DNA from: an uncultured bacterium
GTDB taxonomy: Bacteria; Zixibacteria; MSB-5A5; JAABVY01; JAHJOQ01
Direction of reading: 5' to 3'
Assembly: GCA_965369655.1 (NCBI GenBank)
Contig: CBDUQR010000028.1
Span: 1-38,455 of the forward strand
DNA: 38,455 nt
Shown: positions 5,676 to 38,455 of the stretch, in pieces
How the letters are laid out: every line of letters starts with the position of its first letter
Position numbering within the stretch: the stretch's first letter is position 1
Translations under genes and position numbers: made by a program
Notes under the pieces: model-generated
Databases searched by the model: none
Told to the model about the DNA's origin: nothing
What the model saw: only the letters and a program-made list of their open reading frames with translations

Positions 5676-5916
5676 TTCTCCCTCCACATAGTAATAGTGT
5701 TGCTGTTATGTCTGTTCTTATTTCTCAAATTTGAGCACCATCCATCAGCAAGGTGAGGACAGCACGGATATGACCGCGAAAACGCAGATTCCTTTTATTA
5801 TAAGCACAAATCTCAGAAAAGAAAGCGAAATTTTGACTATTTCACCTATTTTGGAGTAATATAGTCGATTATGTGAAGTAATTGATCCGTATTCGATTGC
5901 TGACGGGGTAAAGTAA

Positions 5917-14945: not shown

Positions 14946-15032
14946 CCAATATGTGAGAAAATACTTGTATGAAGCACTCAGAAGTAGTTATTGTAGTGCA
15001 TGAATTCGATATTAGAAAAATGGGGCATAACG

Positions 15033-18686: not shown

Positions 18687-19337
18687 ATGATAGAGATATT
18701 ATAAGCAATCGGCATTCCCGCCATCGTTATGGTTCTCGCCATTGCTGTGGGTGTCTTCTTAAGGGAACTCTGGCCTCTGTTTGCGGCGAATCGGCTACAG
18801 GCAGTGCAGGCAGTTCAGAACCGCGTTATTGAGCAATACGAACGACAGATAGAGGAATTCTACCTCCCTCTACGGCAACGATTTCTTCTGTCGCAACTCT
18901 TGCACGAAACTACTAATGACTGGATGATTGAACGTGCATACACAAACGATGCGCTAAACGTGCAGTCAGATGATCCGAGAGCACTCCGAAAGATCGTTGT
19001 TCGAGGGATGTTCATGCCGTGCAATCGCGACATCCAGGAACTCATCCTCAATAAGAGCCACCTCAAGGCAGACTATGATGAGGCGCGATATGAGGTCATT
19101 CTTCGTCACTTTGTGATTTGGAGTAACCTTGAATCTGCCTTGGAGAACGGAAGCATCGTAGACTACGATGCAAGCCACATCCTCAGTTTTCCAGATGAGG
19201 AGGTGCGAAAGCACCATCTGGCGTGCGATCAATTGCTCGATGAAAGAGACGAGTTGTTAAAGCGAATGCAGACCGTGGCATGGACTGCATATCGTAGCAG
19301 ATACCATCGTAACGGAAAAAAAGGAGAACCAACATGA
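18687..19337 (+). CDS. Hypothetical membrane-anchored protein; in-frame TAA at codon 6 (open frame from 18729)
   Basis: GGAGAG, then ATG 18687 MIEIL*AIGIPAIV, in frame with the 18729 ORF (MVLAIAVGVF...ERQIEEFYLPL). Confidence 0.65.
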
Positions 19338-19585
19338 AGGAAAGAACGCGAGAACTACTGAAGGATCGACACGGTGCATCATCAAACAACTATGGCTGCC
19401 CCGTGCACATCTCGCTCGATGCATGTGGTGCCCTGTTCAAAGAGGCAGGTATAGCGCCCACTCCAGGAGCGGTAGGCAAACTCGGAGACGTGCTCGAAAA
19501 CTATGCCCTTATGTTAATGAAAGGTGTAAGCGGAGGAAGAATCAGCGAGACTGACCTTGCCCGCATCGTTGATGAGATAGGCTGA
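19334..19585 (+). CDS. Small protein, putative histone fold with shortened alpha2
   Basis: AAGGAG RBS and ATGA overlap with the upstream gene; pattern G.LFKEAG...A..KL..VLE....L...RI...DL...V resembles archaeal and bacterial histones. Confidence 0.6.
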   Translation: MKERTRELLKDRHGASSNNYGCPVHISLDACGALFKEAGIAPTPGAVGKLGDVLENYALMLMKGVSGGRISETDLARIVDEIG

Positions 19586-19588
19586 GCA

Positions 19589-19725
19589 GGTAGCCCACCC
19601 AACCCGGTAGCCCACCCAAAGTGAAAGCGTCGGGTGGGTTCACATTTCACAGGTGGCTCACCTTTGGGGTGAGGATACTTCTTCGGTTCTCGGATATCAA
19701 ACCCACCGCAATCAGTGGGCCACCA
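19589..19725. repeat. GTAGCCCACCC-type REP cluster with a short tandem duplication; degenerate copy at 20701-20737
   Basis: GGTAGCCCACCCAA twice (19589 and 19606), then GGGTGGGTT; GGTAACCCACCCAAAGCGTAAGC at 20702. Confidence 0.6.
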
Positions 19726-19813
19726 GTCAATGTGTATAGCCTCATAGGATGGAGTAAGACGATTAGCGGTGTCACAAAAATCTAACCGTGCAGCGGAAGT
19801 CAGGAGGAACAAT

Positions 19814-20674
19814 ATGTTGCCAAAAAAGACGCAGTTCGCGGATGCTCGCAGGAAAGCCAAAACTGCAAAGCAAGCTTCCGAACGTGGTGCGGAGAAACGA
19901 ACCCAATTTGTCGACCAATACGATATCGGCTTCTCACTGGCATTAAATGAGGCTATCAACCTCCTTTGTAAGATGCGTCCCGCCCAGAACAAGCTTGCAG
20001 TTGACGCATCGCTGTTCGGGCTTGTAGGTCTCGTTGCTTTAGGGACTATCAGTATGGGCATCGAGCAACGAATGAAGATGCATCTTGTACTACAGAGCTA
20101 CCAGTCTGTCAATGCATTTGTGAACGCACAAGCCACTCAGCGCATGGCGAACATGTTCGGATTGCACCTTGTCCATGGCTTCAGAAAGGTCCCCGAAGAG
20201 AAGGTCGTCGACCACGTTAGGATGGCGCTCGAAGGTAGAGGAGATTCACTACTAAAAAGAGCATTTAAGAAAAAGAAGAACAACATCTTGGTTTGGGATG
20301 CTGGCTTCTTGGAGGAGCTTGAGTTAGCAGTTAATCTCTATGACTACGGTCGGGAAATCATCTGGCAGCCTGCTTTTGTAGTCACAGTTCTCTCAAACCC
20401 CAGTTCCTACTATAAAGGCAGTCTTTCCGTGACTCCGGAAATGAAAAGGCTGAACTTTGCTAAGAAAAGAAAGCCAGTGATGGCTTGCTTCGAGTGCATT
20501 GCATCTGCGTGTTTTTTCTCAAAGGAAGGGCTTCTGGTACCGTGGAATGCAATCGGTCGTTTCTTGAATCGCACGGCGGGTCCAGACGCAGGTGAAAGGC
20601 GGATCGCTGCCTTGAAAAAGGTTTATGAGAATCTTCCCGATACCACCGAAATACCGTTTGTTGACAAACTGTAA
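19814..20674 (+). CDS. Hypothetical protein
   Basis: Long ORF with basic N terminus; AGGAGG before ATG 19814 (alternative GTG 19769); no recognisable family. Confidence 0.65.
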   Translation: MLPKKTQFADARRKAKTAKQASERGAEKRTQFVDQYDIGFSLALNEAINLLCKMRPAQNKLAVDASLFGLVGLVALGTISMGIEQRMKMHLVLQSYQSVNAFVNAQATQRMANMFGLHLVHGFRKVPEEKVVDHVRMALEGRGDSLLKRAFKKKKNNILVWDAGFLEELELAVNLYDYGREIIWQPAFVVTVLSNPSSYYKGSLSVTPEMKRLNFAKKRKPVMACFECIASACFFSKEGLLVPWNAIGRFLNRTAGPDAGERRIAALKKVYENLPDTTEIPFVDKL

Positions 20675-23904: not shown

Positions 23905-25482
23905 TCAGGATTCGTTCTGCTGTGAGAATGCAGTATCGAGGAGAGATTCGACTTCCTGACCGCGTGCCGCGTTGAGCTTTTCCATCAGCATAGCCTTCTC
24001 GATTGCGATTTCGGCCTGGCTGAGGATTGTCTGCGCCGACTCCAGCTTTCCTTCATCGATGGGCTCATCCGAATCCGGGCTCGACAGCAGTATCACCATA
24101 CCGATTTCATCATTGACCTGGATCGGCAGCAGCGCAAAGGCGCTTGAATTGATGACTTCGAGTTCTACAGGATCACGGTCAGAATCATATATCTTCGAGG
24201 GGGCGTCGAGCACGTTTACAGGGCTGCCATTCGCCACGACTGCTCTGATGAATCCAACGGAGTCCTTAATCTCAATCTGCATACGGCGCACCTGATCCTG
24301 GGATTGTACGCCGAAACCTAACATCCCACGTGCGATGGAGCTCTCTTTGTCGATTTCGAACAGGATGGCCCGACCCATTTCGAACCCGCGGAAGATGCTT
24401 TCGAGGACGATCTGGAGTATTTCGCCCACGCTTCCCGCCTGCCTGATGCACTCCGATGCTTCCCGAAGCACCGACAGTTGTCGCTCTCTGCTGCTGAGTT
24501 GTTCTGACATCTGCTGCATCTCGACAGTGATTTCTGCAGGCGATGGACCAAATGGATGCACCACTCCGTTTTCAGGCGAGCCACCGATCGTGTCTGCAGC
24601 CGCCGCGTTCTCGATACAGATGCCCAGCTCTGAGGAGATATCGAGAATGCTGGGCCAGGCGTTAGCCGCTATTGCGTCTATCGCCTCCGCCGGAATTCCC
24701 GCCAATGTTTCTGCCTCCTTATAGATGTTGCTTGAACGGTCGATCTCGTTGTTCCCTTCACGCACTTCCCCGAAGAGTCTGTGTGCCAGGTAGATTATAT
24801 CAACCAATCTCGATTTGCTCTTTATTCCGAGTGATATTCCGACTCTGTGATGGAACTGGATCGGTGAAAGAAGCTGCGACGGCATGTTCCATTTTCTGCC
24901 GAGCCAGTGTCCGAGGGCGCAGTGGTCGGTGCCGATCAGATCTCTCTCGGTCGAGATATCGTCTTCTCCGGCCTCAATCAGCTTGTCGATTCTTGAATAT
25001 TCTGTTCTGAACACCTGACTTATGACCACCTTGCCGATGTCATGGATGAACCCGGCGATGAACGCCTCTTCCGGGATCCTGTACCGACATGCTTTCGCCA
25101 GGAGTTTGCCGATTATGCCGCACCCGAGTGACTTGGTCCAGAAGCGCTTGAAATCGAAATCTTTGATACTCTTTGAACTGGTGAAAGTGTCGTGTATGGC
25201 TATGCTCATCACCACATTCCTGACCGTCCGGAAACCCATCAGCACGATTGCCTGAGTGACAGTGCCGACCTTTCCCGAAAACTCCGCGTAGTAGGCGGAG
25301 TTGGCGAGCTTGAGTATTCTTGTCGTGAGGTGGTGATCGCTCAGGACGATATTCGCCAGGTCAGCCGCAGACGATTTCGGATCTTCGGATATCTCCTTGA
25401 CGCGGATGATGATCTCGGGCACCGATGGGATGCTTGCCGAAAACCCCTCCAGCTTTTCTTTGATTCTTTCGTCTGTGATCAT
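23905..25482 (-). CDS. HDOD domain protein with C-terminal GAF domain
   Basis: RILKLANSAYY, QAIVLMG, AFIAGFIHDIGK and IGTDHCALG..W; GAF-like region (RAILFEID, FALLPIQV). Confidence 0.88.
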   Translation of the reverse strand: MITDERIKEKLEGFSASIPSVPEIIIRVKEISEDPKSSAADLANIVLSDHHLTTRILKLANSAYYAEFSGKVGTVTQAIVLMGFRTVRNVVMSIAIHDTFTSSKSIKDFDFKRFWTKSLGCGIIGKLLAKACRYRIPEEAFIAGFIHDIGKVVISQVFRTEYSRIDKLIEAGEDDISTERDLIGTDHCALGHWLGRKWNMPSQLLSPIQFHHRVGISLGIKSKSRLVDIIYLAHRLFGEVREGNNEIDRSSNIYKEAETLAGIPAEAIDAIAANAWPSILDISSELGICIENAAAADTIGGSPENGVVHPFGPSPAEITVEMQQMSEQLSSRERQLSVLREASECIRQAGSVGEILQIVLESIFRGFEMGRAILFEIDKESSIARGMLGFGVQSQDQVRRMQIEIKDSVGFIRAVVANGSPVNVLDAPSKIYDSDRDPVELEVINSSAFALLPIQVNDEIGMVILLSSPDSDEPIDEGKLESAQTILSQAEIAIEKAMLMEKLNAARGQEVESLLDTAFSQQNES

Positions 25483-25491
25483 CCCGATCCG

Positions 25492-26391
25492 CTACTCTTC
25501 AAACAGGTATTTTTCGGATTGATAGGCCTCGTCGAGTTCTTCCACAAGATTGTCGATATCAATCTGCCCGAATCCGGCGATCTGTGCCAGCGGCAATGAC
25601 GTAAGATCGTCGAGACGTCGATCATTAAATCCGCAATCGATCTGTTTGGCCAACTCGTTGCAAAACTGCGTGATGAACGCAATCGGGACATTCGACGCAA
25701 CGAGGCGCTCCGTATCGGCGTCGTCATCATGCCTGGGATCATGGTGATTCGAGATGGCCGACGTCAGCATCGACGGGAAATTCCATCTTTCAAACAGAAG
25801 CCTGCCGACTTCGACATGCCCGAAGCCGAGTTGTTCGGTCTCAACCTCCATGAACGTCAGGCTTTCCGATTCCACCTGCCTGCAGACCAATTCATACTGC
25901 TCCGAGAGTTTTTGCGAGAGAATGAGCTTGCCTAAGTCGTGCATCAATCCAACGATAAACGCCTCCTCGATTTGTGGATGCCTGATTTTCCTGGAGATGA
26001 TTCGGCTCGCCATGGCAGTCGCGAGCGAGTGCTCCCACAGCCTCTGTTCCACGTAACTCTCGTTTTTCTTCTTGAAAAGGCTGTGTGTCGATGATGCCAC
26101 GACGAGTGATCGGAGAGTGTAGAACCCGAGGATCAGGATAGCCTCCTTCAGCGTTCCGACACCCTTCGGTCGCCCATAAAACGATGAATTCGACAGCTTC
26201 AGGACCTTGGCGGACAACGCCTGGTCGGCTGAAAGGACCTTGCCGAGCTGTGCGACGTCCGTGTCCAGATTGCTGGTGAGTCCCATCACAGTGGAGACGA
26301 TAGCGGGCGAAGCTGGCAGTTCGCCCATAGTTGATATGATCTTAGCGACAATTGGATTCGAATCGACGGCCTGAGTATCTTGCATTTTCAA
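25492..26391 (-). CDS. HDOD domain protein
   Basis: ELPASP, DQALSAKVLKLSNSSFYG, AFIVGLMHDLGK and GFGHVEVG..L.ERWNFP. Confidence 0.9.
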   Translation of the reverse strand: MKMQDTQAVDSNPIVAKIISTMGELPASPAIVSTVMGLTSNLDTDVAQLGKVLSADQALSAKVLKLSNSSFYGRPKGVGTLKEAILILGFYTLRSLVVASSTHSLFKKKNESYVEQRLWEHSLATAMASRIISRKIRHPQIEEAFIVGLMHDLGKLILSQKLSEQYELVCRQVESESLTFMEVETEQLGFGHVEVGRLLFERWNFPSMLTSAISNHHDPRHDDDADTERLVASNVPIAFITQFCNELAKQIDCGFNDRRLDDLTSLPLAQIAGFGQIDIDNLVEELDEAYQSEKYLFEE

Positions 26392-26732: not shown

Positions 26733-26761
26733 TTGACAAGATTAGTAGTTCAGTGTATATT
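26733..26761 (+). promoter_or_regulatory. Strong sigma70 promoter heading the cohesin/dockerin cluster
   Basis: TTGACA-17-TATATT, implying a ~340-nt leader to ATG 27111. Confidence 0.75.
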
Positions 26762-27110: not shown

Positions 27111-28217
27111 ATGGCAAATCCCATTCACCGTTTCGCAGCGTGTTGTGTGGCGCTCATGTTGGTTGGAATGTTTATCTTTTCGGACATATATGCATCCGAT
27201 GACGCCCTTGAGCTCTATGTCAATGTTGGCGACACCAGTATAACCAGGGATGCGGACAGCGTGGTGATTTCGGTCTTTATGGAGAATTTCGTCGATTCCG
27301 TCGGTGGTATGGAACTCTGGCTTTTCATCAACCAGGAAGAGGTTCTCAGGTTCCGTGCTGACTCTGTCTGGCAGAGTGATACCACCTTTGCAAACTGCAC
27401 GGATTCATTCTGTACCGCGTGGATCGAAGATTCGTGCATTGCGTGGGAGTATGATCCGTCGACATGCTCTGATACTACCGTCGACGAAGGCTGGGTGCAG
27501 AAGGGTGCGACTGATCTGAGTGGCACTATGATCGAAAACTGGGATTTTGTTACGTCGAATGTGCTGGATCAGAACCGACGGCAACTCAAGATCGTCGGCA
27601 TCGCTAATCAGTCCGGTGGTGCCTCGAAAGCCATTCCTCCGAACTCCGGCAATGCATTGCTGGTGAAGCTCGTGGCTGAGGTCCGTGAGGACCATCTCGA
27701 CTCCATGGGGCTGGTTCCCGACTCGCTCTGTCCCGACAGCGCCTATGAGCATTTGGGGATCACTACGATTATTATCTGGGACAATGTCTCCCGATTCTCC
27801 GACACTCATGACGGCCTTATTGGCTGGGTCTGGGAGTATCTGTGCATCGACTCAGTCTGTACCGAGTGGGAAGGCGATTCATGCATAGCGTGGGAATGCA
27901 CGGCTTGGGATGAAACCGACTCGTCCGGTCATATCGATACCACAAAAGTCAAGTTTTTCGATGGCGATGTATCACTCACATGTGCTGAGTGTGACTGGGT
28001 CGGAGGGGATGCTAACGGGTCCGGCGGCGTAGACATTGACGATGTAGTCTATCTCATAAACTATATATTCGGGGGAGGCCCGGAACCGGAGCCAGAGTTA
28101 GGCGCTGGTGATGCCGACTGCTCCGGAAATGTCGACATCGACGACGTTGTCTATCTTATCAACTACATTTTCGGTGGCGGCCCAGCGCCGTGCCCGTGTG
28201 AAGAGGTGCCTATGTGA
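27111..28217 (+). CDS. Secreted cohesin-like plus dockerin protein with Cys/Trp-rich inserts
   Basis: AGGAGG RBS, signal peptide, cohesin-like strands (VVISVFMENFVDSVGGMELWL; LLVKLVAEV), C-terminal dockerin GDANGSGGVDIDDVVYLINYIFGGGP twice. Confidence 0.82.
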   Translation: MANPIHRFAACCVALMLVGMFIFSDIYASDDALELYVNVGDTSITRDADSVVISVFMENFVDSVGGMELWLFINQEEVLRFRADSVWQSDTTFANCTDSFCTAWIEDSCIAWEYDPSTCSDTTVDEGWVQKGATDLSGTMIENWDFVTSNVLDQNRRQLKIVGIANQSGGASKAIPPNSGNALLVKLVAEVREDHLDSMGLVPDSLCPDSAYEHLGITTIIIWDNVSRFSDTHDGLIGWVWEYLCIDSVCTEWEGDSCIAWECTAWDETDSSGHIDTTKVKFFDGDVSLTCAECDWVGGDANGSGGVDIDDVVYLINYIFGGGPEPEPELGAGDADCSGNVDIDDVVYLINYIFGGGPAPCPCEEVPM

Positions 28218-28230
28218 GCGGTCGCGGTCA

Positions 28231-28259
28231 TCAGGCCTGCGCCGCATGCCGGATTTTTT
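28231..28259 (+). terminator. Probable weak intrinsic terminator
   Basis: Imperfect hairpin TCAGGCCTGCG/CGCATGCCGGA followed by TTTTTT. Confidence 0.5.
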
Positions 28260-28631
28260 AACAGAATACTTACCTCGTGCCAATATGGCACTTACTTGCG
28301 AGGCCGTTGTTGATTCTTGCGTGAATTACTGACCGAGTGGAAAGAGATTGATAATAATGATGATGAAAATAAAAAAAGCGGCTACGAGCCGATGAAGAAG
28401 AAAGAGAAGGGAGGTATCGAAAGAAGAAGAGGCGTTTTTTGTTCAAACCAACTAGTCAACTGCGACTGAATTGAGCTTGCGAGATTCGGTTACGGACCTT
28501 GCTCTTGTTGTGCGGCCTAAATTGTGTGATGAGTGCAGGAATTGACAAATCCTTGAGGGGGACTGAAACGTAAGTTGCTCTCAGGTATTAACCTGAGAAA
28601 CAACAAGGAATTCTTAAACTAAAGGAGCACA

Positions 28632-31274
28632 ATGATGAGACGAATTTCTTTAGTAGTCTTAATGCTTCTTCTTGCTTGTAGCTTTGCATTCGCAGACGAC
28701 TACATCAGAATCGACGTCGATTCAATCGTCAAGGGTACCGCTGGCGCGGATCTTGATTTCTATATCATACGTCAGTGCCCAGATCCGGTCAATATCTCAG
28801 GCGCTAGCAATGGTTGGCAGATGACCGCGACTAACTGTACGTGGACATTCAATGGTTTCACCCCAGGTGCTAGCGGAACTGCTTGGTGGACTCTTGGATT
28901 GGGTTTTGGTTTCTCTGATGGTTTGACATCAACCACCGCCTCTGGTTGGTTCGGTTGCGGTGGTGCTGGTAGCATGCCGGTCGTGCCAAATGAGGTATTA
29001 TACTTCACATTGAACTTCGACATCAGTGATGACGAAGGTACGATCTGCATCGACTCCGCGTGGTTCCCGCCGGCAGGTAGCTGGAAATTCTCCGGTATGA
29101 CCTGTGGACAGGGTGGCGCACCGGATCGTCCGCTCTTCTTAGCCAAAGACGGCAGCGATGCTGTTCATCCGATCTGCATCACTGTCTACGAGGCGCAGTG
29201 CACTCCACCCACCGGCATGAATGGTCCTGCTGGTGACGAGCTCACTGGCAACCACTGCAGTCCGCTGACACACGGATTCACTGTAGACAATCCTGGTGAT
29301 TTCGATGGTGTTCCGGCACTGCCGCTGGTCTGGACTGTCACGACCGGCCCCGGTGCGTTCACTGGTGCTACGTATGACGTTGGTCCGATGGCGACCGGTA
29401 CGTATCCTGTCACCATTCGCGTGACGAACGATTGCGGCGAGTTCCTGGACTACGGCTTTGATCTCGTTTACGAGAACACTGTTCCGACATTCGATAACTG
29501 TGCTGGCATGCCTCCGGCAATCGGCATGGGCAACAACTACTACTACGACTTCGACGCAACTGATCCGGATTTCTGCGACGCCCTGACATACGTTATGCCG
29601 ATCGTGATCACTCCGACTCCGTTCAATGACCCGCAGATTGACGGCACGGGTGTCCTGACCTGGATGACCCATGAGGACGATGGCGGCATTACGTTCACTA
29701 TCACCATTACTGTTAACGACGGTGAAGGTGGCACGGCTGACTGTGTGTTCGATGTCGAAGTTCTTGAGTCCGAGCCATTCGAGATTCAGTTGGAGAAGGT
29801 GGAGCATCAGTATCAGGGTCACTATGCCAATGTCTCGATCTTCCTGAACAAGGGTTCCGAGTTCTTTGGCGGCTTTGACTTCCTGGTGGCTTATGACGCT
29901 TCCGGCCTGACCTTCATGGGCGCTACCCTCGGTACGTTCCTTGACGGTTGCTGGGAGTACTTCACCTACCGTTACGGCTGGCAGGGTAACTGCGAAGGTC
30001 CTTGTCCGAGTGGTCTGCTCCGTGTTGTCGGTATTGCCGACATCAACAACGGTCCGTACCATCCGGATGTTGTCTGTCTGCGGAAGACCTCTACTCCGTA
30101 TGATATTACCACTGGTCTTGGTGTGCAGGAAGAGCTGGTTAACTTGACGTTCTACGTCACGAATGACCGGACTTATGATTGCATGTACCTGCCGATCCGT
30201 TTCTTCTGGCACGACTGTGGCGACAACTCCATATCGAATCTCGGCGGTGACACTCTTTGGATCTCGAGATATGTCTATGACTATGACTGGTCTCTTGGCT
30301 TCATGGACATCACCGGCATGATCCACTACGGTGGCCACTGGTGGCTCTTTGGCCCGCCATATCCGTTTGTGGATTTCGAGCTCAACACCGCTTGTATGAA
30401 TGACGATCCTGAGAAGCCGAGCCCGATTCGGTTCATCGACTTCATTACTGGTGGCGTCGACATTGAATGTGCCGACTCGATCGACCTTCGTGGCGACATC
30501 AACCTGAACAGCATCGCGAATGAAATCGCTGATGCTGTTCTTTACACCAACTACTTCATCTACGGTCTTAGCGTCTTTGACATCATGATGGAAGGCCAGA
30601 TTGCGGCCTCCGACGTGAACAACGACGGCAAAGTCCTGACAGTTGGTGACCTTGTTTACCTGATCCGCATCGTTGTCGGTGATGCGCTTCCATTCCCGAA
30701 GCTCTCGCCGTTTGCTAACAGCGTAGAAGTCGTTTCAGGTGACGTTGTCGTATCGAAGTCGAATTCCGACATTGGCGCGGCTCTGTTCGTCTTTGATGGC
30801 GCTGGCGATGCTACACTGCTCGCCGACGGCATGAAGATTAAGAGCGACGTTGTTGACGGTCAGCTTCGTGTTCTGGTCTGGTCCGACAATACCAACCGTA
30901 TTCCGGCTGGTACGAACGACCTGATCGCGGTTTCGGGTGACATTAGCCTGATCGAGACTTCATTCTCAGATTACAATGGTAACCTGATGAATGTTGGCGT
31001 GGCTAAGATCGCTCCGAGTCTGTTCACGTTGAAGCAGAACTATCCGAACCCATTCAACCCGACTACTGATATTACCATAGTTATGCCTGAAGAGGGTAAC
31101 TGGAAGCTTAATATCTATAACGTAGCGGGTCAGCTTGTTGAATCCTTCTCCGGTTACGACATTGGTGAAGTAACCGTGACGTGGGATGCTACTGGCGTGG
31201 CTTCGGGCATCTACTTCTACAAGGCCACTGCTGGTCAGTATACTGACACTAAGAAGATGGTCCTGATGAAGTAA
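28632..31274 (+). CDS. Secreted cohesin-like/Ig/dockerin protein with T9SS-type (FlgD-Ig) C-terminal domain; likely an abundant surface protein
   Basis: AAAGGAG RBS, signal peptide, cohesin-like GGFDFLVAYDASGLTF, atypical dockerin (GDINLNSIANEIAD; SDVNNDGKVLTVGD), tail QNYPNPFNP...ASGIYFY...KKMVLMK. Confidence 0.85.
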   Translation: MMRRISLVVLMLLLACSFAFADDYIRIDVDSIVKGTAGADLDFYIIRQCPDPVNISGASNGWQMTATNCTWTFNGFTPGASGTAWWTLGLGFGFSDGLTSTTASGWFGCGGAGSMPVVPNEVLYFTLNFDISDDEGTICIDSAWFPPAGSWKFSGMTCGQGGAPDRPLFLAKDGSDAVHPICITVYEAQCTPPTGMNGPAGDELTGNHCSPLTHGFTVDNPGDFDGVPALPLVWTVTTGPGAFTGATYDVGPMATGTYPVTIRVTNDCGEFLDYGFDLVYENTVPTFDNCAGMPPAIGMGNNYYYDFDATDPDFCDALTYVMPIVITPTPFNDPQIDGTGVLTWMTHEDDGGITFTITITVNDGEGGTADCVFDVEVLESEPFEIQLEKVEHQYQGHYANVSIFLNKGSEFFGGFDFLVAYDASGLTFMGATLGTFLDGCWEYFTYRYGWQGNCEGPCPSGLLRVVGIADINNGPYHPDVVCLRKTSTPYDITTGLGVQEELVNLTFYVTNDRTYDCMYLPIRFFWHDCGDNSISNLGGDTLWISRYVYDYDWSLGFMDITGMIHYGGHWWLFGPPYPFVDFELNTACMNDDPEKPSPIRFIDFITGGVDIECADSIDLRGDINLNSIANEIADAVLYTNYFIYGLSVFDIMMEGQIAASDVNNDGKVLTVGDLVYLIRIVVGDALPFPKLSPFANSVEVVSGDVVVSKSNSDIGAALFVFDGAGDATLLADGMKIKSDVVDGQLRVLVWSDNTNRIPAGTNDLIAVSGDISLIETSFSDYNGNLMNVGVAKIAPSLFTLKQNYPNPFNPTTDITIVMPEEGNWKLNIYNVAGQLVESFSGYDIGEVTVTWDATGVASGIYFYKATAGQYTDTKKMVLMK

Positions 31275-31291
31275 TCGTCTATGCTTCATAG

Positions 31292-31325
31292 ATTGTTGGG
31301 GGGGATGCGAATCCCCCTCAACAAT
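31292..31325 (+). other. Stable stem-loop without U tract (mRNA 3' stabiliser or terminator)
   Basis: ATTGTTGGGGGGGAT-GCGA-ATCCCCCTCAACAAT. Confidence 0.7.
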
Positions 31326-31427
31326 ACTAACGAGTGAAAGGAGATAAACGGCTGACAACTTCTACGGAATGAAACTAAGGCAAAGACTTGGTGGAAGTTT
31401 ACATGATCGGGCAATCGGTTTTAATCA

Positions 31428-31463
31428 GGCTGGGCGGGTTGCTGCCGGTCTTTTTTGTTTTTT
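31428..31463 (+). terminator. Intrinsic terminator
   Basis: G/C-rich hairpin with G-U pairs, GGCTGGGCGG..CTGCCGGTC, followed by TTTTTTGTTTTTT. Confidence 0.65.
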
Positions 31464-31699
31464 GTGGGGGTGGTTATCGTTTCCTGGTCATGTTGCACCA
31501 GATTGCGGATACTCTGAAAAGAAAACACCACTGCGACGTACTCATCAAATCTGCCGCTCACGGACGAGCAGAGAACACTGTCATTCAATGTACTCCAGAA
31601 GGTTGGTTGCTATAGCGTAAGTCGTTACAGGGCTGAATATTATATGTGGGCGCGGATGTTCAAATCTTGGACATGAGTCAAGCCCGCAAATAAGTCCTG

Positions 31700-31715
31700 C
31701 GGCACACGTGTTGCT
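31700..31715 (+). promoter_or_regulatory. Putative sigma54 (-24/-12) promoter
   Basis: CGGCACACGTGTTGCT: GG-N10-GC, matching YGGCAC-N5-TTGCW. Confidence 0.6.
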
Positions 31716-31789
31716 GCCAAGAGTCTCGGAGGTACTATGTTCGTATGTGAGCTTATGGCAACTTCAAAACTACAGGCAGGCCGGATTCA

Positions 31790-34201
31790 ATGAAGAATTC
31801 AATCCTTGTATCGCTGGTTATTGTGTCTTTAATGATTCCCGTCGTTCGAGCTCAGGATGATCCGTATGGCGTGGTCGATTCCGTTCGCATTGCGACAGTA
31901 TCGACAGAGCCCGGATCGAGCGTCTCGGTCGATGTATATATGTTCAATGACCCCGGTCTGAGTAGCCTGACAGTACCCATAAAGTTTAATCAGGAGTTCC
32001 TTACTCTTGACACAATCCGCTTTGACGGATCGAAAATAGAATATCTAAGCATGAAACCGTTCCTGATCGACAACGAGAACGGCAAAGTGCTTCTGGGAGG
32101 GCTGGTGATAATGGAAGACCCGATACCTGCCGGACCGGGTCTGCTTGCCACGCTCGATTTCTCAGTGTCGTCCGGCGCCGAGCCGGGGGATATTCTCGTC
32201 ATGGATACGAGTTTTGTCCCACCCGCCGGGTACTTCTTATTTGTGCCCGTCGATCTCGACAAGTTTACACCGGAATTCGTCGCGGGCGAAATAAGGATCA
32301 CTGACCCGAACAAGCCGCCCGTCTTCAGAGAAATTGATGATCTATCTGTTTTTGAAGGCAAAGAGATCAGTTTCGTGGTCAAGGCCGTCGATCCGAACGG
32401 CGTAGAGTATTCGGCCCTTCGTCTCCCGCCTGGCGCGGAGTTCGACGAAAACACCGGACTCTTTAGCTGGATTCCTCCTTTCGTCGGTCCTTATTCGTCG
32501 TCGGCAGGCAGTGTCTCGGCGCGGTTTTCCGCAACTGATGGTCAGGCGGCGAGCCATATGCAGGTCGATATTACGATACTGAACACAAACAGGCCGCCGG
32601 AACTGGCTGTCCCTGATTCTTTCGATGTGGTGGTCGGCGACTCGGTTTTCATTCTTATCTCCGCGGAAGATCCTGATATCGAAGAGGTCGAGATCGATCT
32701 GTCAAACCTGCCTTCGGGAGCAGACTATCTCCGCGGAAATCCGGGATACCTGAGTTGGAAGACATCTCTTTCTGATTCAGGCTCCTACCTGATAGATGTC
32801 TCCGCGTACGATCCGTACGGATCATCCGACCACAAGACACTCAAGCTGAATGTTCATTCCGCGGCACCATGTGAACTCGACATATCAGATATCCAGGTGG
32901 TTAGCGGAGATGCCGGCATCATCGAGATTGATCTGCTGAACAGAGTGGCCGTCGACGGCATGAATCTTCTGATCAAATATGATCCGACTGCGCTCGATTA
33001 CCTCTCATCGTCTGCTGTCGGCGCCAGGATAGAGTATTGGGAGCGGTTCATAGTGACCGTCAGCGAACCCGATGGCCGCATCTGGCTCGATGCCAACGCC
33101 AATTTCCCCGGTCAGGATATGGTCGATCCTCTTGCCGAGGGCAGCGGTCCCGTTATGCTGATAAACTTCCTGATTACATCCGACGTATCTTTTGCAGGTC
33201 AGATGGTCCCGGTTGTCTTCGAGTTCATAGATACTTTGTCGAATCTTGACAACATCATCATCGACTCCGATGGTGAAGTCCTCGGGTGGGACATGATAGA
33301 CTATTTCGACGGGTCGGTATTCATCAAGCAATTTGAGGCGCTTGTGGGCGACATAAATCTGAATTCTGTCCCGTTCGAGGTAGGAGATGTTGTCTATTTC
33401 ACGAATTATTTCATCGATCCCGGCGCATATCCTCTCGATGGCGACCGCTGGCCCAATTCCGACATCAATCAGGATGGCCGTCCCGGCACAATAGGCGACC
33501 TGATCCAACTCATAAGCATTGTGGGAGTAGGTGGAAGCGGCAAGATATACCATCCGGAACCCGCGACTGATAATCGAATTATCTTAGAGAATATTAGCAC
33601 ACCCACCGGCTCAGATGTGATCGCCGATGGGAGTTCGCCGATTGGGGGCGCCATGTTCCTGTTCAGGGTGAACGCTGCCTCAAAACTCGATGTGACTGTC
33701 GGGAGCGAACTCGATCATGTTACTCTGCATCACTCGCTTCTGGGCGATGAACTCCGCGTACTGCTTCTCGATGAGAGCGGAGCTGGAATAGCCGCCGACG
33801 GCAGACCGATCATATCCGTTCGACATTCGGCCGATGCGGCAGTCGAATTGATCGAGGCAGGCGTTGCGGACCCGACCGGACGTATGCTGACGGCTGAACT
33901 CGGAAGAAACGCGGTGTTGCCGAGTGGCTACAGACTTGATCAGAATTTCCCAAATCCGTTCAATCCGGTTACGCAGATCAGTTTTTCGCTTGAGTATGCT
34001 GGAATAGTGTCGCTCAAGGTCTACAATATTCGCGGACAGTTGGTCAGGACTCTTGTGGGTCTTGAGATGCAGGCAGGCGTTCACTCGATTGAGTGGGACG
34101 GCGCCGATGCCGATGGCGATCCTGTCGCGTCGGGAGTCTACTTCTACAGACTCGAGTCGCAGGATTTCTCAGATGTTAAGAAAATGATGCTAATAAAATG
34201 A
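31790..34201 (+). CDS. Secreted cohesin, 2x cadherin-like Ig, cohesin, dockerin, T9SS-type CTD protein
   Basis: Signal peptide; cohesin-like VSVDVYMFN..LSSLTVPIKF and DGMNLLIKYDPTAL; NKPPVF and NRPPEL Ig repeats; GDINLN and SDINQDG dockerin; QNFPNPFNP...SGVYFYRL...KKMMLIK. Confidence 0.85.
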   Translation: MKNSILVSLVIVSLMIPVVRAQDDPYGVVDSVRIATVSTEPGSSVSVDVYMFNDPGLSSLTVPIKFNQEFLTLDTIRFDGSKIEYLSMKPFLIDNENGKVLLGGLVIMEDPIPAGPGLLATLDFSVSSGAEPGDILVMDTSFVPPAGYFLFVPVDLDKFTPEFVAGEIRITDPNKPPVFREIDDLSVFEGKEISFVVKAVDPNGVEYSALRLPPGAEFDENTGLFSWIPPFVGPYSSSAGSVSARFSATDGQAASHMQVDITILNTNRPPELAVPDSFDVVVGDSVFILISAEDPDIEEVEIDLSNLPSGADYLRGNPGYLSWKTSLSDSGSYLIDVSAYDPYGSSDHKTLKLNVHSAAPCELDISDIQVVSGDAGIIEIDLLNRVAVDGMNLLIKYDPTALDYLSSSAVGARIEYWERFIVTVSEPDGRIWLDANANFPGQDMVDPLAEGSGPVMLINFLITSDVSFAGQMVPVVFEFIDTLSNLDNIIIDSDGEVLGWDMIDYFDGSVFIKQFEALVGDINLNSVPFEVGDVVYFTNYFIDPGAYPLDGDRWPNSDINQDGRPGTIGDLIQLISIVGVGGSGKIYHPEPATDNRIILENISTPTGSDVIADGSSPIGGAMFLFRVNAASKLDVTVGSELDHVTLHHSLLGDELRVLLLDESGAGIAADGRPIISVRHSADAAVELIEAGVADPTGRMLTAELGRNAVLPSGYRLDQNFPNPFNPVTQISFSLEYAGIVSLKVYNIRGQLVRTLVGLEMQAGVHSIEWDGADADGDPVASGVYFYRLESQDFSDVKKMMLIK

Positions 34202-34252
34202 TAACAGGATTCGAAAAATATTTCCTTCATCATAATATGAGAGGACTAAGTT

Positions 34253-36538
34253 ATGCATAGACTCAAATTTGCACTGGCTCTGGCTTTCATGCTGAGCATG
34301 GTAGGAGTTTTCCAGGTAGCCGAAGTCGAGGCCCAGACGTCGGTGTTCGACACTCTGAAGGTAATGGATGCTTTCGGAGATGCGGGCGATACAGTTGCTG
34401 TGGATTTATATCTGACCAACACGATTGAAGTTGGAGGCTTGAACTTCCTGCTGCATTTCGACAGCACCTATCTCTCTCCCGCCTATGCCTGGGATGCGAT
34501 CATTGACGGCGATACGTCTGCGCCGCTGCATTTCGAGATGATTAACCGCGGTGTAGGGAAGTTTTTCTATGTGCAGTCAGTCAATTCCCTCGACACGAGC
34601 GCGATTGCTGGTTTCGGACACATCGTAACAGGTATATTCGTGGGTGATCCGTTCTCGTCTGATGATATCGCTATCGGCAACGGAACGTTCCTGCGGTTCT
34701 ATGTTTATATTAAGCCGTACGCACCTGAGGGTACTTCGGTCAACATTATCCTCTATGACGAGCAGGTCTCGGGCGGCAGGATGAACGAGTTCTACGATCC
34801 GGAGGGTCTTGTCGGAATTATGCCCACACTCGTGACCGGCTCGGTCACCGTCGGTGAGGGACCGCCGCCGCAGGATTCGGTAAATACCGCGCCATACTTC
34901 ACTCAACCGTCCCAGACAGTTTACAATGTTGATCAGGGCGATCCTGTACAGTTCACCGTCACTGCCGCGGATGTTGACGTCGGTCAGCCAATCGAATTGA
35001 GCATGCTCAGCGGACCGTCCGGAGCGTCATTCACTGGCGCATCCGGTACCGGGAGCGTATCGAGTGTTTTCTCGTGGACGCCTAATTTCTCACAGGCAGG
35101 TCAGTTCCAGGCCACGTTCATTGTCGAGGATGACTCGGCTGCGACTGCTCAGAGAGTTGTGACTATCAACGTTGCTGAGCCTGCGATCGAGGACGATATC
35201 CTTTTCACGACGTCGCAGGAAACGTACTTCGTTGAAGGCGGTATCCCGGGCGCGGACGATGTCAGTGTGCCGATCAATCTGAACGATCTCAACACCCTCT
35301 TTGGCATTCAGTTTGATCTTACCTACGATAACACGGTGATGGCGCTCGATTCTTTCGAGATGACCGATCGATTAGCGGGATTCGAGTTATACACTGAAAA
35401 CACCGGTCCTGGCATGGTGAGAGTAATATCATTCGGACTGGCGAACGAGGAGATAGGACCGCCGGTTTCATCGAGCGCTATTCTCAATTGTTGGTTTACC
35501 ATCAATCAGACTGCCACACCCGGATACTATAAATTCAAGCTCGATAACGGTCGTGCTTCGGTAAGTCCTGATCCAGGGCAGGGATCTGTGGATATCCTGG
35601 TCGACACTCTGGGCGCAGTGGCTGTCGATGCCATCGGTGATGTCAATCTCGACACCAGAATCGATGTTGATGACCTGGTGAAAGTCGTAGCGTACATCAT
35701 TGGCGACTACCCACTTAGCACGAGACAGTTCCGAGCGGGTGATATCAACGGCGACACCGAGGTCAATGTCGTTGACCTTGTCGGTATCATCAACATGATC
35801 TTCGCAGGCGCATCACCATCTTCGCTGCCGAAATTCGCCTACACAGGTGAGCCTGCGTCGCTCGAGGTGGTGGCTATAGAATCGGCCAACGGTCAAATCG
35901 ATGAACTTCGGATTGACGCCAATCTCCCGACTGAGGTGGCAGGCCTGCAGTTCGATCTGACATATGACCCGTATGACATCGAGCTCGGCGACCCAGGCCT
36001 CACAGAGAGATCGTACGGCTTCCGGCTACGGTCGCGTGAGATCAGCGATGGACGCCTGAGAGTTCTGCTATACTTTGATCCTTCCGATATGGATAATGTA
36101 ATAGATGCTGGACTCGGTTCACTCGTAACCATTCCCGTGTATCAGTCCGGCGGCATGTTATCGGATGAGCAACCCGTAAAGATGCACAATGTCGTGCTCT
36201 CTACTCCTGATGGTCGGGAAATACCAGTTGTCGAGAAATCGGGTCTGTTGCCGACGGCATTTGAGTTGAGACAGAATTATCCGAACCCGTTCAATCCGAC
36301 GACGAATATCAGTTTTGCGATTGGCGGCGGTGAAGCTCAGCCGGTGAGACTGGTTATCTATAATGTACTGGGCCAGACTGTTGAGACGCTCATAGACAGC
36401 GAACTGACCCCCGGCCAATATGATGTCACGTGGAACGGCACGAGTTCTGACGGCGAGTCGCAAGCGTCAGGAGTGTACTTCTACAGTCTGCAGGTCGGCG
36501 ACCGAAGAGATACTAAGAAGATGGTGTTGTCAAAATAG
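34253..36538 (+). CDS. Secreted cohesin, Ig, cohesin, dockerin, cohesin, T9SS-type CTD protein
   Basis: GAGGA RBS, signal peptide; cohesin-like GGLNFLLHFD, FGIQFDLTYD and AGLQFDLTYDP; dockerin GDVNLDTRIDVDD and GDINGDTEVNVVD; QNYPNPFNP tail. Confidence 0.87.
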   Translation: MHRLKFALALAFMLSMVGVFQVAEVEAQTSVFDTLKVMDAFGDAGDTVAVDLYLTNTIEVGGLNFLLHFDSTYLSPAYAWDAIIDGDTSAPLHFEMINRGVGKFFYVQSVNSLDTSAIAGFGHIVTGIFVGDPFSSDDIAIGNGTFLRFYVYIKPYAPEGTSVNIILYDEQVSGGRMNEFYDPEGLVGIMPTLVTGSVTVGEGPPPQDSVNTAPYFTQPSQTVYNVDQGDPVQFTVTAADVDVGQPIELSMLSGPSGASFTGASGTGSVSSVFSWTPNFSQAGQFQATFIVEDDSAATAQRVVTINVAEPAIEDDILFTTSQETYFVEGGIPGADDVSVPINLNDLNTLFGIQFDLTYDNTVMALDSFEMTDRLAGFELYTENTGPGMVRVISFGLANEEIGPPVSSSAILNCWFTINQTATPGYYKFKLDNGRASVSPDPGQGSVDILVDTLGAVAVDAIGDVNLDTRIDVDDLVKVVAYIIGDYPLSTRQFRAGDINGDTEVNVVDLVGIINMIFAGASPSSLPKFAYTGEPASLEVVAIESANGQIDELRIDANLPTEVAGLQFDLTYDPYDIELGDPGLTERSYGFRLRSREISDGRLRVLLYFDPSDMDNVIDAGLGSLVTIPVYQSGGMLSDEQPVKMHNVVLSTPDGREIPVVEKSGLLPTAFELRQNYPNPFNPTTNISFAIGGGEAQPVRLVIYNVLGQTVETLIDSELTPGQYDVTWNGTSSDGESQASGVYFYSLQVGDRRDTKKMVLSK

Positions 36539-36753
36539 AAGCAAATCGTGTGCTCGTCTGCAGAAGACGGCGCACGCATTCTGCGTTGTTGAGAAAGAAC
36601 TATGGATGATGTGATAACCGGATACTTCCTGACGCAATCGACTATGTATGAACGTACTGCTCTCAGTGATAATGTTGCCACTTGTGTAGTGGATAGTTGT
36701 TGGTCCTCCGGTCTGGTGTTGACGGTTGATATGCAAATGGAGAGGATAGGATC

Positions 36754-38455
36754 ATGTTTGCACGAATGATAAAAGGATGTAGATGGGTTTGTCCCCGTAT
36801 CGGTCACGCAGGACACGTTTTTCTTGTGGTGGCTTTGTTTATGCTGGGTCTTACGTCTACTACTGCTGGACAGATCCAGATCACTCCAGTTTATTCATTT
36901 TCGAATACCCAGGAGAGTACGGCTTCAACATCACTTCAGAACAGCGATGTGTCAATTGCTGGCTCGAGCCTTGAGAGTGGTAAAGACTACCTGATCTTAT
37001 ACTCTGCAGCCTATGGTGGCCAAAACACTAACGCGGTTCCGGTTGTTGCTGTATCGTACGGCGGAACTATCATAGCTACGGGGGCAGACGAAGGCTCATC
37101 CTCCGGTTCTCCTGAAGCAATGCGCTCGGGATCCTTGCATGGTTTCTATGTTCTTACCGGTGATGGTACCTCAGATCTGAGAATTCAGTTCCGCTCGTCC
37201 TCACTCGCCAACACCTATATAAAAGGTAAGTCCCTTGTCGCAATTCCTCTTGAGAATCTGACAGAGAATGAGGATTACTGGTATGTGGGTCAAAATGGTG
37301 ACGCTGCTGAAGTGACAACTACATCATCCTTTGTGGATCTTTTGTCGACGACTTTCGACCTTCCGGAGACGGGTGATTACCTGGTTCTCATGAGTGCCGA
37401 GGGTTGGAATACTGGATCCAGTACTGATGGAGAGCAATTCCGTTCTGTTATCAATACCGAAGTTCAAAAGGCGGCCATGGCCAAGGAGTGGGAAGATGAT
37501 GCAGCAAGTCGGTCATTCTCCTATGCTGAGGTTAAGAATCTGAACGCCGGCAACAACACATTTGAAATAGAGGTAGGATCTGCCCAGGGGACACAGGCGA
37601 AGTATTTTCGCAGAGGACGGATTGTGGTTGTCAAGGCTAGTTCCTTTGATCAGGTTACATCGACTAGTGAAGATTCTGATATTACTACCACTGCGATTCA
37701 CCCAATCTACGACGATTTCATAACTCATTCCTTTACTCCGAATCAGCAAGAACATGTGGTGATAATCGGAAACACATGGAGCAATCAGGGCCAGAACTTC
37801 AGGAGCGTCATAACAAGACTTGAGAATTCGACCGATAACACATACTTCTCAGACTTCATTTCAGACGATTCAAAAGATATCAATGTGGATAGAGCAATGT
37901 TGTCGGTCTTTGGAGCTGAGGAGATATCCTCTCAGAAGACCTACGTGTTACAGATTTCTGGAGAGTCTCCGTATTCTACGGCGCATCACTTCCAGTATGG
38001 GGACCTGATTGTCTGGAGCATGACGCTGGCCAATCAGTCTCCGGTGCTCGATCCGATCGGACCTCGCAGTGTACTTGAGGGTGACAACCTGAACTTCGGT
38101 GTGAGTGCATCCGATCCTGACGGCACGATCCCGACGCTTACCGCCGAGGATGTCCCGACCAATGCGACATTCTCAGACAACGGTGACGGCACCGGTGTAT
38201 TCGATTTCAATCCCGACTTCACGCAGGCAGGGGTTTACAATGTCAGGTTCATCGCATCCGATGGCGCATTAGCCGATACAGAGATAGTCGCGATCACTGT
38301 TACCGAGACGAATCAGTCGCCGGTGCTCGCATCTATCGGACCGAAGTCGGTTGTCGAGGGTGACAACCTGAACTTCGGCGTGAGCGCATCCGATCCAGAC
38401 GGCACGATCCCGACGCTTACCGCCGAGGACATTCCTGTCAATGCGACATTCTCAG
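36754..38455 (+). CDS. Large secreted adhesin-like protein with tandem 93-aa cadherin-like/Ig repeats (partial, runs off the window; absent from the ORF track)
   Basis: Manual translation from ATG 36754 (after GGAGAGG) is stop-free to the window end. Hydrophobic signal (VFLVVALFMLGLTSTTAG), ~390-aa beta-rich region, then NQSPVLDPIGP...SDPDGTIP...DNGDGTG repeats. Confidence 0.88.
   Translation, partial: MFARMIKGCRWVCPRIGHAGHVFLVVALFMLGLTSTTAGQIQITPVYSFSNTQESTASTSLQNSDVSIAGSSLESGKDYLILYSAAYGGQNTNAVPVVAVSYGGTIIATGADEGSSSGSPEAMRSGSLHGFYVLTGDGTSDLRIQFRSSSLANTYIKGKSLVAIPLENLTENEDYWYVGQNGDAAEVTTTSSFVDLLSTTFDLPETGDYLVLMSAEGWNTGSSTDGEQFRSVINTEVQKAAMAKEWEDDAASRSFSYAEVKNLNAGNNTFEIEVGSAQGTQAKYFRRGRIVVVKASSFDQVTSTSEDSDITTTAIHPIYDDFITHSFTPNQQEHVVIIGNTWSNQGQNFRSVITRLENSTDNTYFSDFISDDSKDINVDRAMLSVFGAEEISSQKTYVLQISGESPYSTAHHFQYGDLIVWSMTLANQSPVLDPIGPRSVLEGDNLNFGVSASDPDGTIPTLTAEDVPTNATFSDNGDGTGVFDFNPDFTQAGVYNVRFIASDGALADTEIVAITVTETNQSPVLASIGPKSVVEGDNLNFGVSASDPDGTIPTLTAEDIPVNATFS
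38032..38455 (+). repeat. Intragenic tandem repeat, 279-bp period
   Basis: Units start at 38032 and 38311 with near-identical DNA (GAGGGTGACAACCTGAACTTCGG, GGCACGATCCCGACGCTTACCGCCGAGGA). Confidence 0.9.

Follow-up and report, generated by a model that had tools for sequence, protein, structure and literature searches.

Cohesin-dockerin assemblies are textbook knowledge for Gram-positive cellulose degraders, with the complex cellulosomes of Acetivibrio/Clostridium and Ruminococcus flavefaciens (CipA, ScaA-ScaB-ScaC, ScaE, OlpA), and for diderms they exist as scattered predictions. We analyze here a set of such genes, called A to E, near one end of the window, by which we mean the whole 38,455-nucleotide contig CBDUQR010000028.1 (assembly GCA_965369655.1) from an uncultured bacterium of the phylum Zixibacteria, whose genome (G000 in our set) comprises 2.99 Mb in 100 contigs at 99.5% completeness. 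Set beside cellulosomes, the Zixibacteria kit has the same folds, orthogonal dockerin classes, adaptors or anchors with a single cohesin, and a cargo number on the same scale, and the symmetry of its cargo dockerin is consistent with dual binding. It differs in that no cellulases, CBM3 (a carbohydrate-binding module, CBM), tandem like cohesins, or SLH or sortase anchors were found, and in that the Zixibacteria cargo must cross an outer membrane. By its folds the kit is a cellulosome-type connector, but for want of cellulases and of a tandem scaffoldin it is not a cellulosome.

Non-cellulolytic cohesin-dockerin kits predicted in other diderms are already known. For 'Ca. Stygibacter' (Cloacimonadota), a cellulosome-like complex was predicted in silico, and the available part of that report describes a diderm with dockerin-bearing C25 and S8 peptidases and a scaffoldin-like protein with a conserved type IX secretion system (T9SS)-type C-terminal domain (PMC8542988). 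As given there, Stygibacter has one scaffoldin of 3,755 residues that combines tandem cohesins with CBM2/3, and few named enzymes, GH18 and GH57 among them, whereas the genome studied here has several scaffolds, all short, whose cohesins are dissimilar and whose dockerins are internal, with three classes of dockerin and about 90 cargo proteins, and its kit is conserved phylum-wide. The Stygibacter-type trait in our genome consists of tail-bearing cohesin proteins (B, C, D, and one encoded on contig C40) together with dockerin-bearing C25 and S8 peptidases; no giant tandem-cohesin CBM2/CBM3 scaffoldin is among its cohesin open reading frames (ORFs), where the division into 100 contigs makes a split gene possible. 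The exchange of a T9SS tail for a dockerin reported below for Zixibacteria is not described for Stygibacter in the accessible text of PMC8542988.

The planctosome of Nemodlikiaceae (Planctomycetes) is likewise a non-cellulolytic cohesin-dockerin assembly, proposed for peptide degradation and having an anchor, an adaptor, and M12/M14 peptidases, but in what the source at hand describes the anchor is a lamin tail and not a T9SS tail, the components are few, and there is no conserved five-gene cluster (PMC6461901). Anaerobic methanotrophic (ANME) archaea (PMC9012536), Chlorobium (10.64898/2026.03.19.712371), the amylosome, and the mucinolysome (PMC4611034, PMC12997984) put the same connectors to non-cellulolytic use with other hosts, cargo, and export routes, and the portions of these sources that we used describe no T9SS-tailed scaffold for any of them. 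With the T9SS and PorU-PorV of Porphyromonas gingivalis, as far as the available text goes (PMC8545088), the shared elements are type A tails on B, C, and D, the proteins SprA, PorV, and PorU, and cargo of the gingipain family; the difference is that the gingipain-like proteins here are mostly without the tail and end in a dockerin. A literature search found no paper joining Zixibacteria with dockerin or cohesin, supplements being outside its scope, and annotations of metagenome-assembled genomes may list such domains. By term search of the accessible text, dockerin and cohesin are absent from the main text of the RBG-1 genome paper (PMC3903129), and T9SS and Gram-negative are absent from a 2024 cellulosome survey (PMC11557425).

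A conserved cluster of cohesin and dockerin genes

Judged by sequence, genes A to E are the conserved core of a non-cellulolytic cohesin-dockerin system in most of the phylum. The cohesin-dockerin-cohesin part of D occurs in 218 of 285 phylum genomes (161 of the 198 high-quality ones), nearly always in single copy, and labelled D homologs are mostly from Zixibacteria, with some records bearing other labels. We compared 114 distinct D loci, picked on D and including kin that are not independent; where at least 8 kb upstream is present, B is found there in 58/58, A in 47/58, and C in 32/58 loci, and where at least 4 kb downstream is present, an ORF of at least 800 residues is found in 25/34. Cluster conservation, which the preliminary description of this DNA had put forward as a check, is by these counts strong. 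The five ORFs, described there as co-oriented and secreted, are found as such on the + strand, each with a hydrophobic N-terminus as judged by eye, A to D complete and E open at the contig end. Their features, with structure comparisons made on predicted structures, are as follows.

27111-28217, + strand: gene A; signal peptide, cohesin, C-terminal IDD/GGPxP dockerin; adaptor without T9SS tail
about 27201-27983, + strand: gene A cohesin with two Cys-rich hairpin insertions (AlphaFold model; against 6kgc_A, Z = 15.9, rmsd 2.2, 142 aligned)
about 27993-28202, + strand: gene A IDD/GGPxP dockerin (Pfam; Z = 9.4 to a solved dockerin)
28632-31274, + strand: gene B; probable divergent cohesin, two cadherin-like immunoglobulin (Ig) domains, cohesin, dockerin, short cohesin-like domain, T9SS tail
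28695-29189, + strand: gene B probable divergent N-terminal cohesin (profile only, 92%)
29769-30479, + strand: gene B cohesin (against 4uyp_A, Z = 16.7, rmsd 2.0, 143 aligned)
30489-30701, + strand: gene B GDINLN dockerin with 13-residue loops (against 4fl4_A, Z = 10.7, rmsd 1.9)
30705-31022, + strand: gene B short cohesin-like domain after the dockerin (profile link through D)
31023-31271, + strand: gene B T9SS type A tail (TIGR04183; against the mirolase tail 8qb1_A, Z = 10.2)
31790-34201, + strand: gene C; two cohesins, two Ig domains, GDINLN dockerin, cohesin-like domain, T9SS tail
31859-32305, + strand: gene C first cohesin, followed by two Ig domains and then the second cohesin
32858-33331, + strand: gene C second cohesin, preceding the GDINLN dockerin at 33335-33541
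34253-36538, + strand: gene D; cohesin, Ig domain, cohesin, dockerin, cohesin-like domain, T9SS tail
34340-34858, + strand: gene D variable cohesin, followed by the Ig domain
35192-35629, + strand: gene D conserved cohesin, followed by the dockerin
35630-35818, + strand: gene D asymmetric dockerin with 12-residue loops
35828-36238, + strand: gene D cohesin-like domain, followed by the T9SS tail
36754-38455, + strand: gene E, 5' part, running off the contig end; repeat head, then Ig repeats; giant stalk
36871-38019, + strand: gene E head, three weakly related repeats of ~128 residues (repeat E = 0.002-0.17)
26733-26761, + strand: upstream of A, a candidate sigma-70-like promoter (consensus match only, 11 of 12 bases)

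The AlphaFold models were made from a 49-row alignment for A (pLDDT 88.6) and a 73-row alignment for B (pLDDT 82.7), and with Z = 15.9-16.7 for the cohesins and 9.4-10.7 for the dockerins they place the beta-sandwiches and the dockerins of the preliminary description in the expected folds. At 13-19% identity, type I cohesins are the nearest solved structures. Pfam scores Cohesin above its cut-off in C (32.9 bits) and D (58.9 bits) and in no other of the five, a dockerin in A and D only (24.5 bits in D), a tail in each of B, C, and D, and in E nothing except Ig repeats. In profile comparison, the second cohesins of A, B, and C form one group (97-100%), the gene C cohesins have links of 99.5-100%, the domain after the D dockerin matches D's own cohesin at 97%, those of B and C are linked through D at 97-98%, and the B N-terminal domain matches the C-type cohesin profile at 92%. 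From such matches, the B N-terminal domain and the post-dockerin domains of B, C, and D are probably cohesin-like. The tailed proteins had been credited with 2-3 cohesin-like domains each, of which two in C, two in D, and one in B are firm and the remainder probable. No protein in the genome has more than 3 cohesin-like domains, and those within one protein are dissimilar. A Foldseek search with full-length B returned only long multi-Ig chains at rmsd >18 and was discarded, and an Atlas search with the B N-terminal domain returned unnamed clusters, one set having Cohesin in 13% of members.

The three T9SS-tailed proteins that were first described are borne out as B, C, and D, scoring 42.2, 35.3, and 35.4 bits against TIGR04183 type A (cut-off 23), and the model of B also shows the two cadherin-like Ig domains. 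In each of the three the internal dockerin begins within about 10 residues of a cohesin, directly behind it as claimed. A and E have no T9SS tail match, and A is, in agreement with its first description, a cohesin plus a terminal dockerin without the tail. Also in agreement, Pfam and NCBIfam-type scans match no catalytic family in A to E, and Pfam finds no CBM in them. E had been called a repeat adhesin; it is cut by the contig end, and complete homologs carry an IDD-type dockerin at the C-terminus (L004, L019, L093, L132, L199, L213). The E repeats resemble DNA at the open end of contig C39, where the ORF ends in IDD. For the E head there is an Atlas lead, and it is a lead only, to the TNF-like Bc2L-C lectin fold (0.92, 174 features); Pfam PF21592 is matched in none of 10 homologs (BclA_C in 1/10), and there is no PDB sequence match.

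At least three dockerin classes are present, the symmetric terminal IDD class, the internal GDINLN class of B and C, and the asymmetric class of D, which supports the earlier finding of at least two classes, among them a GDINLN one with a lengthened loop. From the sequence, both calcium loops have 13 residues in the B and C dockerins and 12 in those of A and D. Across the phylum the internal dockerins of B, C, and D hardly vary, the B cohesin face and the B dockerin are both highly conserved in alignment, and a genome may have as many as 10 B-type cassettes. The cohesin-dockerin-cohesin cassette, with its short cohesin-dockerin linker, is also found in three more tailed paralogs (contigs C26, C33, C90), and in one B homolog (L019:4162-7725) a cohesin-dockerin-cohesin-like cassette is tandemly doubled before a single tail. 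This recurrence and doubling, with the conservation of the B cohesin face and dockerin, suggest that the B, C, and D cassette may polymerise in trans, giving filaments or a surface layer joined by cross-links, apart from the cargo. We offer that idea tentatively. Conservation is silent on which cohesin binds, and the dockerin could instead pack on its neighbors like an X-dockerin pair; the idea is compatible with the explanation preferred below. Two adjacent proteins (G000 C30:14223-17182; L066) each have an internal GDINLN and a terminal IDD dockerin, making them possible converters between the codes.

Terminal dockerins in place of T9SS tails

Pfam finds 55 dockerins in the genome, and our own profile finds 92 ORFs at E ≤ 1e-3 and, at a stricter setting, 90 IDD ORFs. 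Among these 90 proteins the dockerin is C-terminal in 84 and a T9SS tail is also present in 1, Ile-Asp stands at the recognition positions in 147 of 162 IDD repeats, and together they occupy 6.2% of the genome. By a crude test, a signal-like N-terminus is present in 82 of the 88 with an intact 5' end versus 304 of 798 background ORFs. Of the 90, 87 (all but two in the window and one fragment) went through a Pfam scan at E ≤ 1e-7, which found 22 peptidases (5 C25, 5 S8, 3 C10, 2 M14, and one each of M1, M6, M12A, M28, C1, C39, and trypsin-like). Other cargo includes propellers, beta-helices, Ig stalks, and a peptidyl-arginine deiminase. At the same threshold none of the 87 matches a glycoside hydrolase family; one BNR propeller and two beta-helix proteins among the cargo could act on glycans. 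Protease cargo was part of the preliminary description, which underestimated the scale of the cargo as a whole, about 90 proteins, and the phylum-wide extent of the system. The window has one such protease itself, with which the genome count of C25 cargo with IDD becomes 6, that of S8 being 5.

138-5687, - strand: gingipain-like C25 peptidase (Pfam Peptidase_C25, 162 bits), without T9SS tail; one of about 90 cargo proteins
225-386, - strand: C-terminal IDD dockerin of the C25 peptidase

Five further proteins have a single IDD half-dockerin directly after the signal peptide, in place of the full C-terminal one (G000 C1:156510, C1:157224, C7:38626, C15:42767, C15:43639).

Comparison of homologous C-termini indicates that, within the same families of proteins, the terminal dockerin has taken the place of the T9SS tail: M1 peptidase homologs have the tail at their end where the lineage lacks the kit, and the dockerin where the lineage has it. 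We use labels such as f1, f3, f4, and g56 for family and genus groups within the Zixibacteria genome set, f1 being the family group of the window. In 30 loci, taken from 30 of 43 M1 matches, the T9SS tail is at the end in 11/11 from f3/f4, a dockerin is at the end in 13/14 from kit-bearing families (the other having neither), and the 5 from f9/f19 comprise 3 tails, 1 dockerin, and 1 gap. Our genome also has a DUF7948/propeller protein that ends in the tail, and two paralogs of it with IDD at the end share 64% and 68% identity with it. Tail motifs number 97-270 per genome in 7 f3/f4 genomes, 63-174 in 8 of f9/f19, and 20-75 in the other 45, which are kit-bearing. The f3/f4 genomes keep SprA, D is found in 0/8 of them, B in 0/5, and C-type cohesins in 0/7, and their dockerins are nearly absent (Pfam, 5 genomes, 0-2 matches). 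In 13/13 genomes C-type cohesins and dockerins occur together, and in f3/f4 such cohesins are missing in 7/7. In the literature on dockerins with T9SS or piggy-back export we found no report of such a tail swap, with most subscription journals and supplements outside reach.

That the dockerins might be orphans, binding calcium but having no partner cohesin in vivo, is very improbable. Non-cellulosomal dockerins of unknown role are widespread according to the part of PMC9012536 available, and the dockerin recognition residues of genus g56 look more variable, but in our genome these residues are near-identical across the 90 IDD proteins, which are otherwise unrelated, and Asp at dockerin position 11 (96-184 motif matches per genome in 6/6 f1 genomes, at most 31 elsewhere) is a family-wide switch, which argues for selection by a shared partner. 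The joint loss of kit and dockerins in f3/f4 also speaks against orphans.

Proposed receptors, export, and display

A check for T9SS genes had been suggested for this presumed diderm, and above the cut-offs it returns SprA (707.7 bits, cut-off 200), PorU (641.3, cut-off 420), and PorV_fam (253.7, cut-off 90), agreeing with a diderm host. SprA is in 40 of 41 genomes searched. Of the GldLM/PorLM motor and the GldKN ring, the component looked for was GldM, which has no match in the genome, with control genomes equally silent. PorU adjoins a PorV-family gene (G000:C8:42340-45510; L086:6341-9511) of 1,057 residues that is PorV-like at both ends around a long insert and is followed by a tailed M6-like protein.

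The explanation of the whole that we prefer, and consider rather probable, is an outer-membrane cohesin-dockerin display system with IDD cargo docked on, and exported with, tail-bearing cohesins. B, C, and D would be exported by Sec and then pass through SprA by means of the type A tail that each has; if Porphyromonas is a guide, they would then be cut and anchored by PorU. The near-invariant internal dockerins probably link the scaffold proteins to one another, and the IDD tag on about 90 secreted proteins, among them peptidases, propellers, the adaptor A, and the stalk adhesin E, would let them dock on tail-bearing cohesins. Since the cargo has no tail of its own, its most likely way across the outer membrane is in complex with a tail-bearing cohesin, which is the least certain step. 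About 90 cargo types for few cohesin sites would not make a large multi-enzyme scaffold like CipA; the likely purpose would be a changeable set of proteases and adhesins held on the cell for feeding on particulate protein.

As to which cohesin takes the cargo, the best candidate receptor or carrier by its conservation is encoded outside the window, with the conserved cohesin of D as second candidate.

G000:C40:3494-4477 (L072, L379): gene coding for one cohesin with a T9SS tail; the gene of an OPT oligopeptide transporter lies divergently beside it

This gene has a match in 195 of 285 genomes, in almost every case as one copy, and g56 has it in 5/5; the tail motif is in all 50 copies compared (45 non-f1 and 5 f1), none of which departs from Asp36 and His123. 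Asp36 may correspond to the binding Asp of clostridial cohesins. At its conserved positions the C40 cohesin has no clear f1-specific change. A more specific proposal, about which we are tentative, is that the C40-type protein would serve as a detachable tail, binding cargo in the periplasm, carrying it through SprA, becoming anchored by PorU, and holding it on the surface, with A to E forming, by way of a second and invariant dockerin code, a cross-linked scaffold of their own that includes stalk adhesins. The cargo would in that case leave piggy-back through the T9SS, on a connector of the cellulosome kind. Other small cohesins are found on contig C17. A stand-alone secreted cohesin of ~197 residues (G000:C17:24912-25502; L274:9913-10503) sits behind a gene of ~515 residues with a lipoprotein-like start and a weak YbgF-type match, the pair being syntenic in 8/10 loci, and two adjacent small cohesins (G000:C17:36412-37586; L275) have a signal peptide ending in Cys, lipoprotein-like by eye, and are possible lipid-anchored docks.

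The rival in which the A to E cluster is itself the primary scaffold, the conserved D cohesin being the main receptor of IDD cargo, A, and E, is in our estimate unlikely. D is near-universal and single-copy, the IDD-tagged A and E flank the cluster, and the strand-8 Glu of D, kept in 123 of 134 rows, is Ala or Gly in all 7 rows of f1, the family whose cargo has Asp-11. This loss counts as one evolutionary event, however, 4 more rows of another lineage also lose Glu, and 8/8 genomes with partial Asp-11 keep it, on which account the covariation of dockerin position 11 with the D Glu, seemingly good in f1, was rejected. Two single-contig g56 genomes (G103 and G105; 95-96% complete), with 53 and 40 dockerins, have neither D nor B and keep C-type cohesins, the C40-type gene among them. 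Since many loci and several lineages have C in shortened form or have lost it, its first cohesin was rejected as a universal receptor. A three-chain prediction with the D cassette, the B cohesin, and an IDD dockerin scored 0.02 against a mark of 0.32, in a job unlike the calibration and with the partner fold uncertain, and weighs neither for nor against any receptor.

Several observations weigh against the display system that we prefer. Because g56 keeps 40-53 dockerins without B and D, the cluster is not an obligatory dock of IDD cargo, and the anchored scaffoldins of the preliminary description do not hold up as necessary anchors of it. Families f7, f12, f14, and f15 have many dockerins, yet in these four, and in f9 and f19, no C40-type gene is found at E ≤ 1e-25, only weaker cohesin matches; thus no single receptor is universal in the searches made. 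The 60 genomes were chosen by trait, and the lineage contrast between tail and dockerin may rest on one or two events. With 45 of the 87 scanned cargo proteins lacking a Pfam family, 'proteolytic' covers only part of the cargo. Finally, there are possible alternative export routes, given 9 PorV-like matches in the genome and three secretins. The first of these is PilQ; the second belongs to a PilB/GspE-GspF cluster and the third is next to a cohesin-dockerin gene, and these two pass no family cut-off, GspD included.

These last genes, together with the mutual exclusion and interchangeability of dockerin and tail at the C-terminus, and with specialised shuttles for other tails known in Flavobacterium from the available part of PMC12618676, raise the alternative that the terminal dockerin is the export signal itself, read by a PorV-family shuttle or by a secretin/type II-like route, with cohesin binding after export or never. 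We find this doubtful, given that neither non-PilQ secretin reaches the GspD cut-off and that the shared presence of C-type cohesins and dockerins, and their absence from f3/f4, argue for a cohesin partner. The third secretin (G000:C15:17175-19890; L377, L049) lies directly upstream of a gene for a B-type cohesin plus dockerin and is preceded by three secreted genes without NCBIfam match.

For expression of the cluster, we place the start of A at the ATG at 27111, which has a GGAGG site in front, in place of the ORF caller's 27018. Gaps of 414 and 515 bases inside the cluster, with a terminator-like hairpin and T run 3' of B (31433-31446, + strand; hairpin counts are no higher than in shuffles), mean that a single transcript is not established and that the cluster may be more than one. 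Elsewhere in the window, two HDOD-domain signalling genes, one with GAF, are divergent from the cluster (23905-26391, - strand), and 15000-16748 and 18729-20674 (+ strand) hold two ORFs without Pfam match and a pentapeptide-repeat protein that has hydrophobic segments at its C-terminus.

Consequences for Zixibacteria

Zixibacteria are a widespread phylum of sediments, and most of them appear to have the kit as a core trait; its cargo is about as numerous as in the largest cellulosomes but is aimed at protein. The dockerin-for-tail pattern, seen in the sequences, points to an undescribed way of protein export and display, and the swap poses the question of how tail-less folded proteins cross the outer membrane. 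The C40-type candidate carrier is small, at 280 residues, and the system may be of use in engineering as a source of new orthogonal connector pairs and possibly of a plug-in secretion tag. If carriage of cargo by a C40-type protein is true, the type IX export signal would have been outsourced in most Zixibacteria, for up to about 100 proteins per genome.

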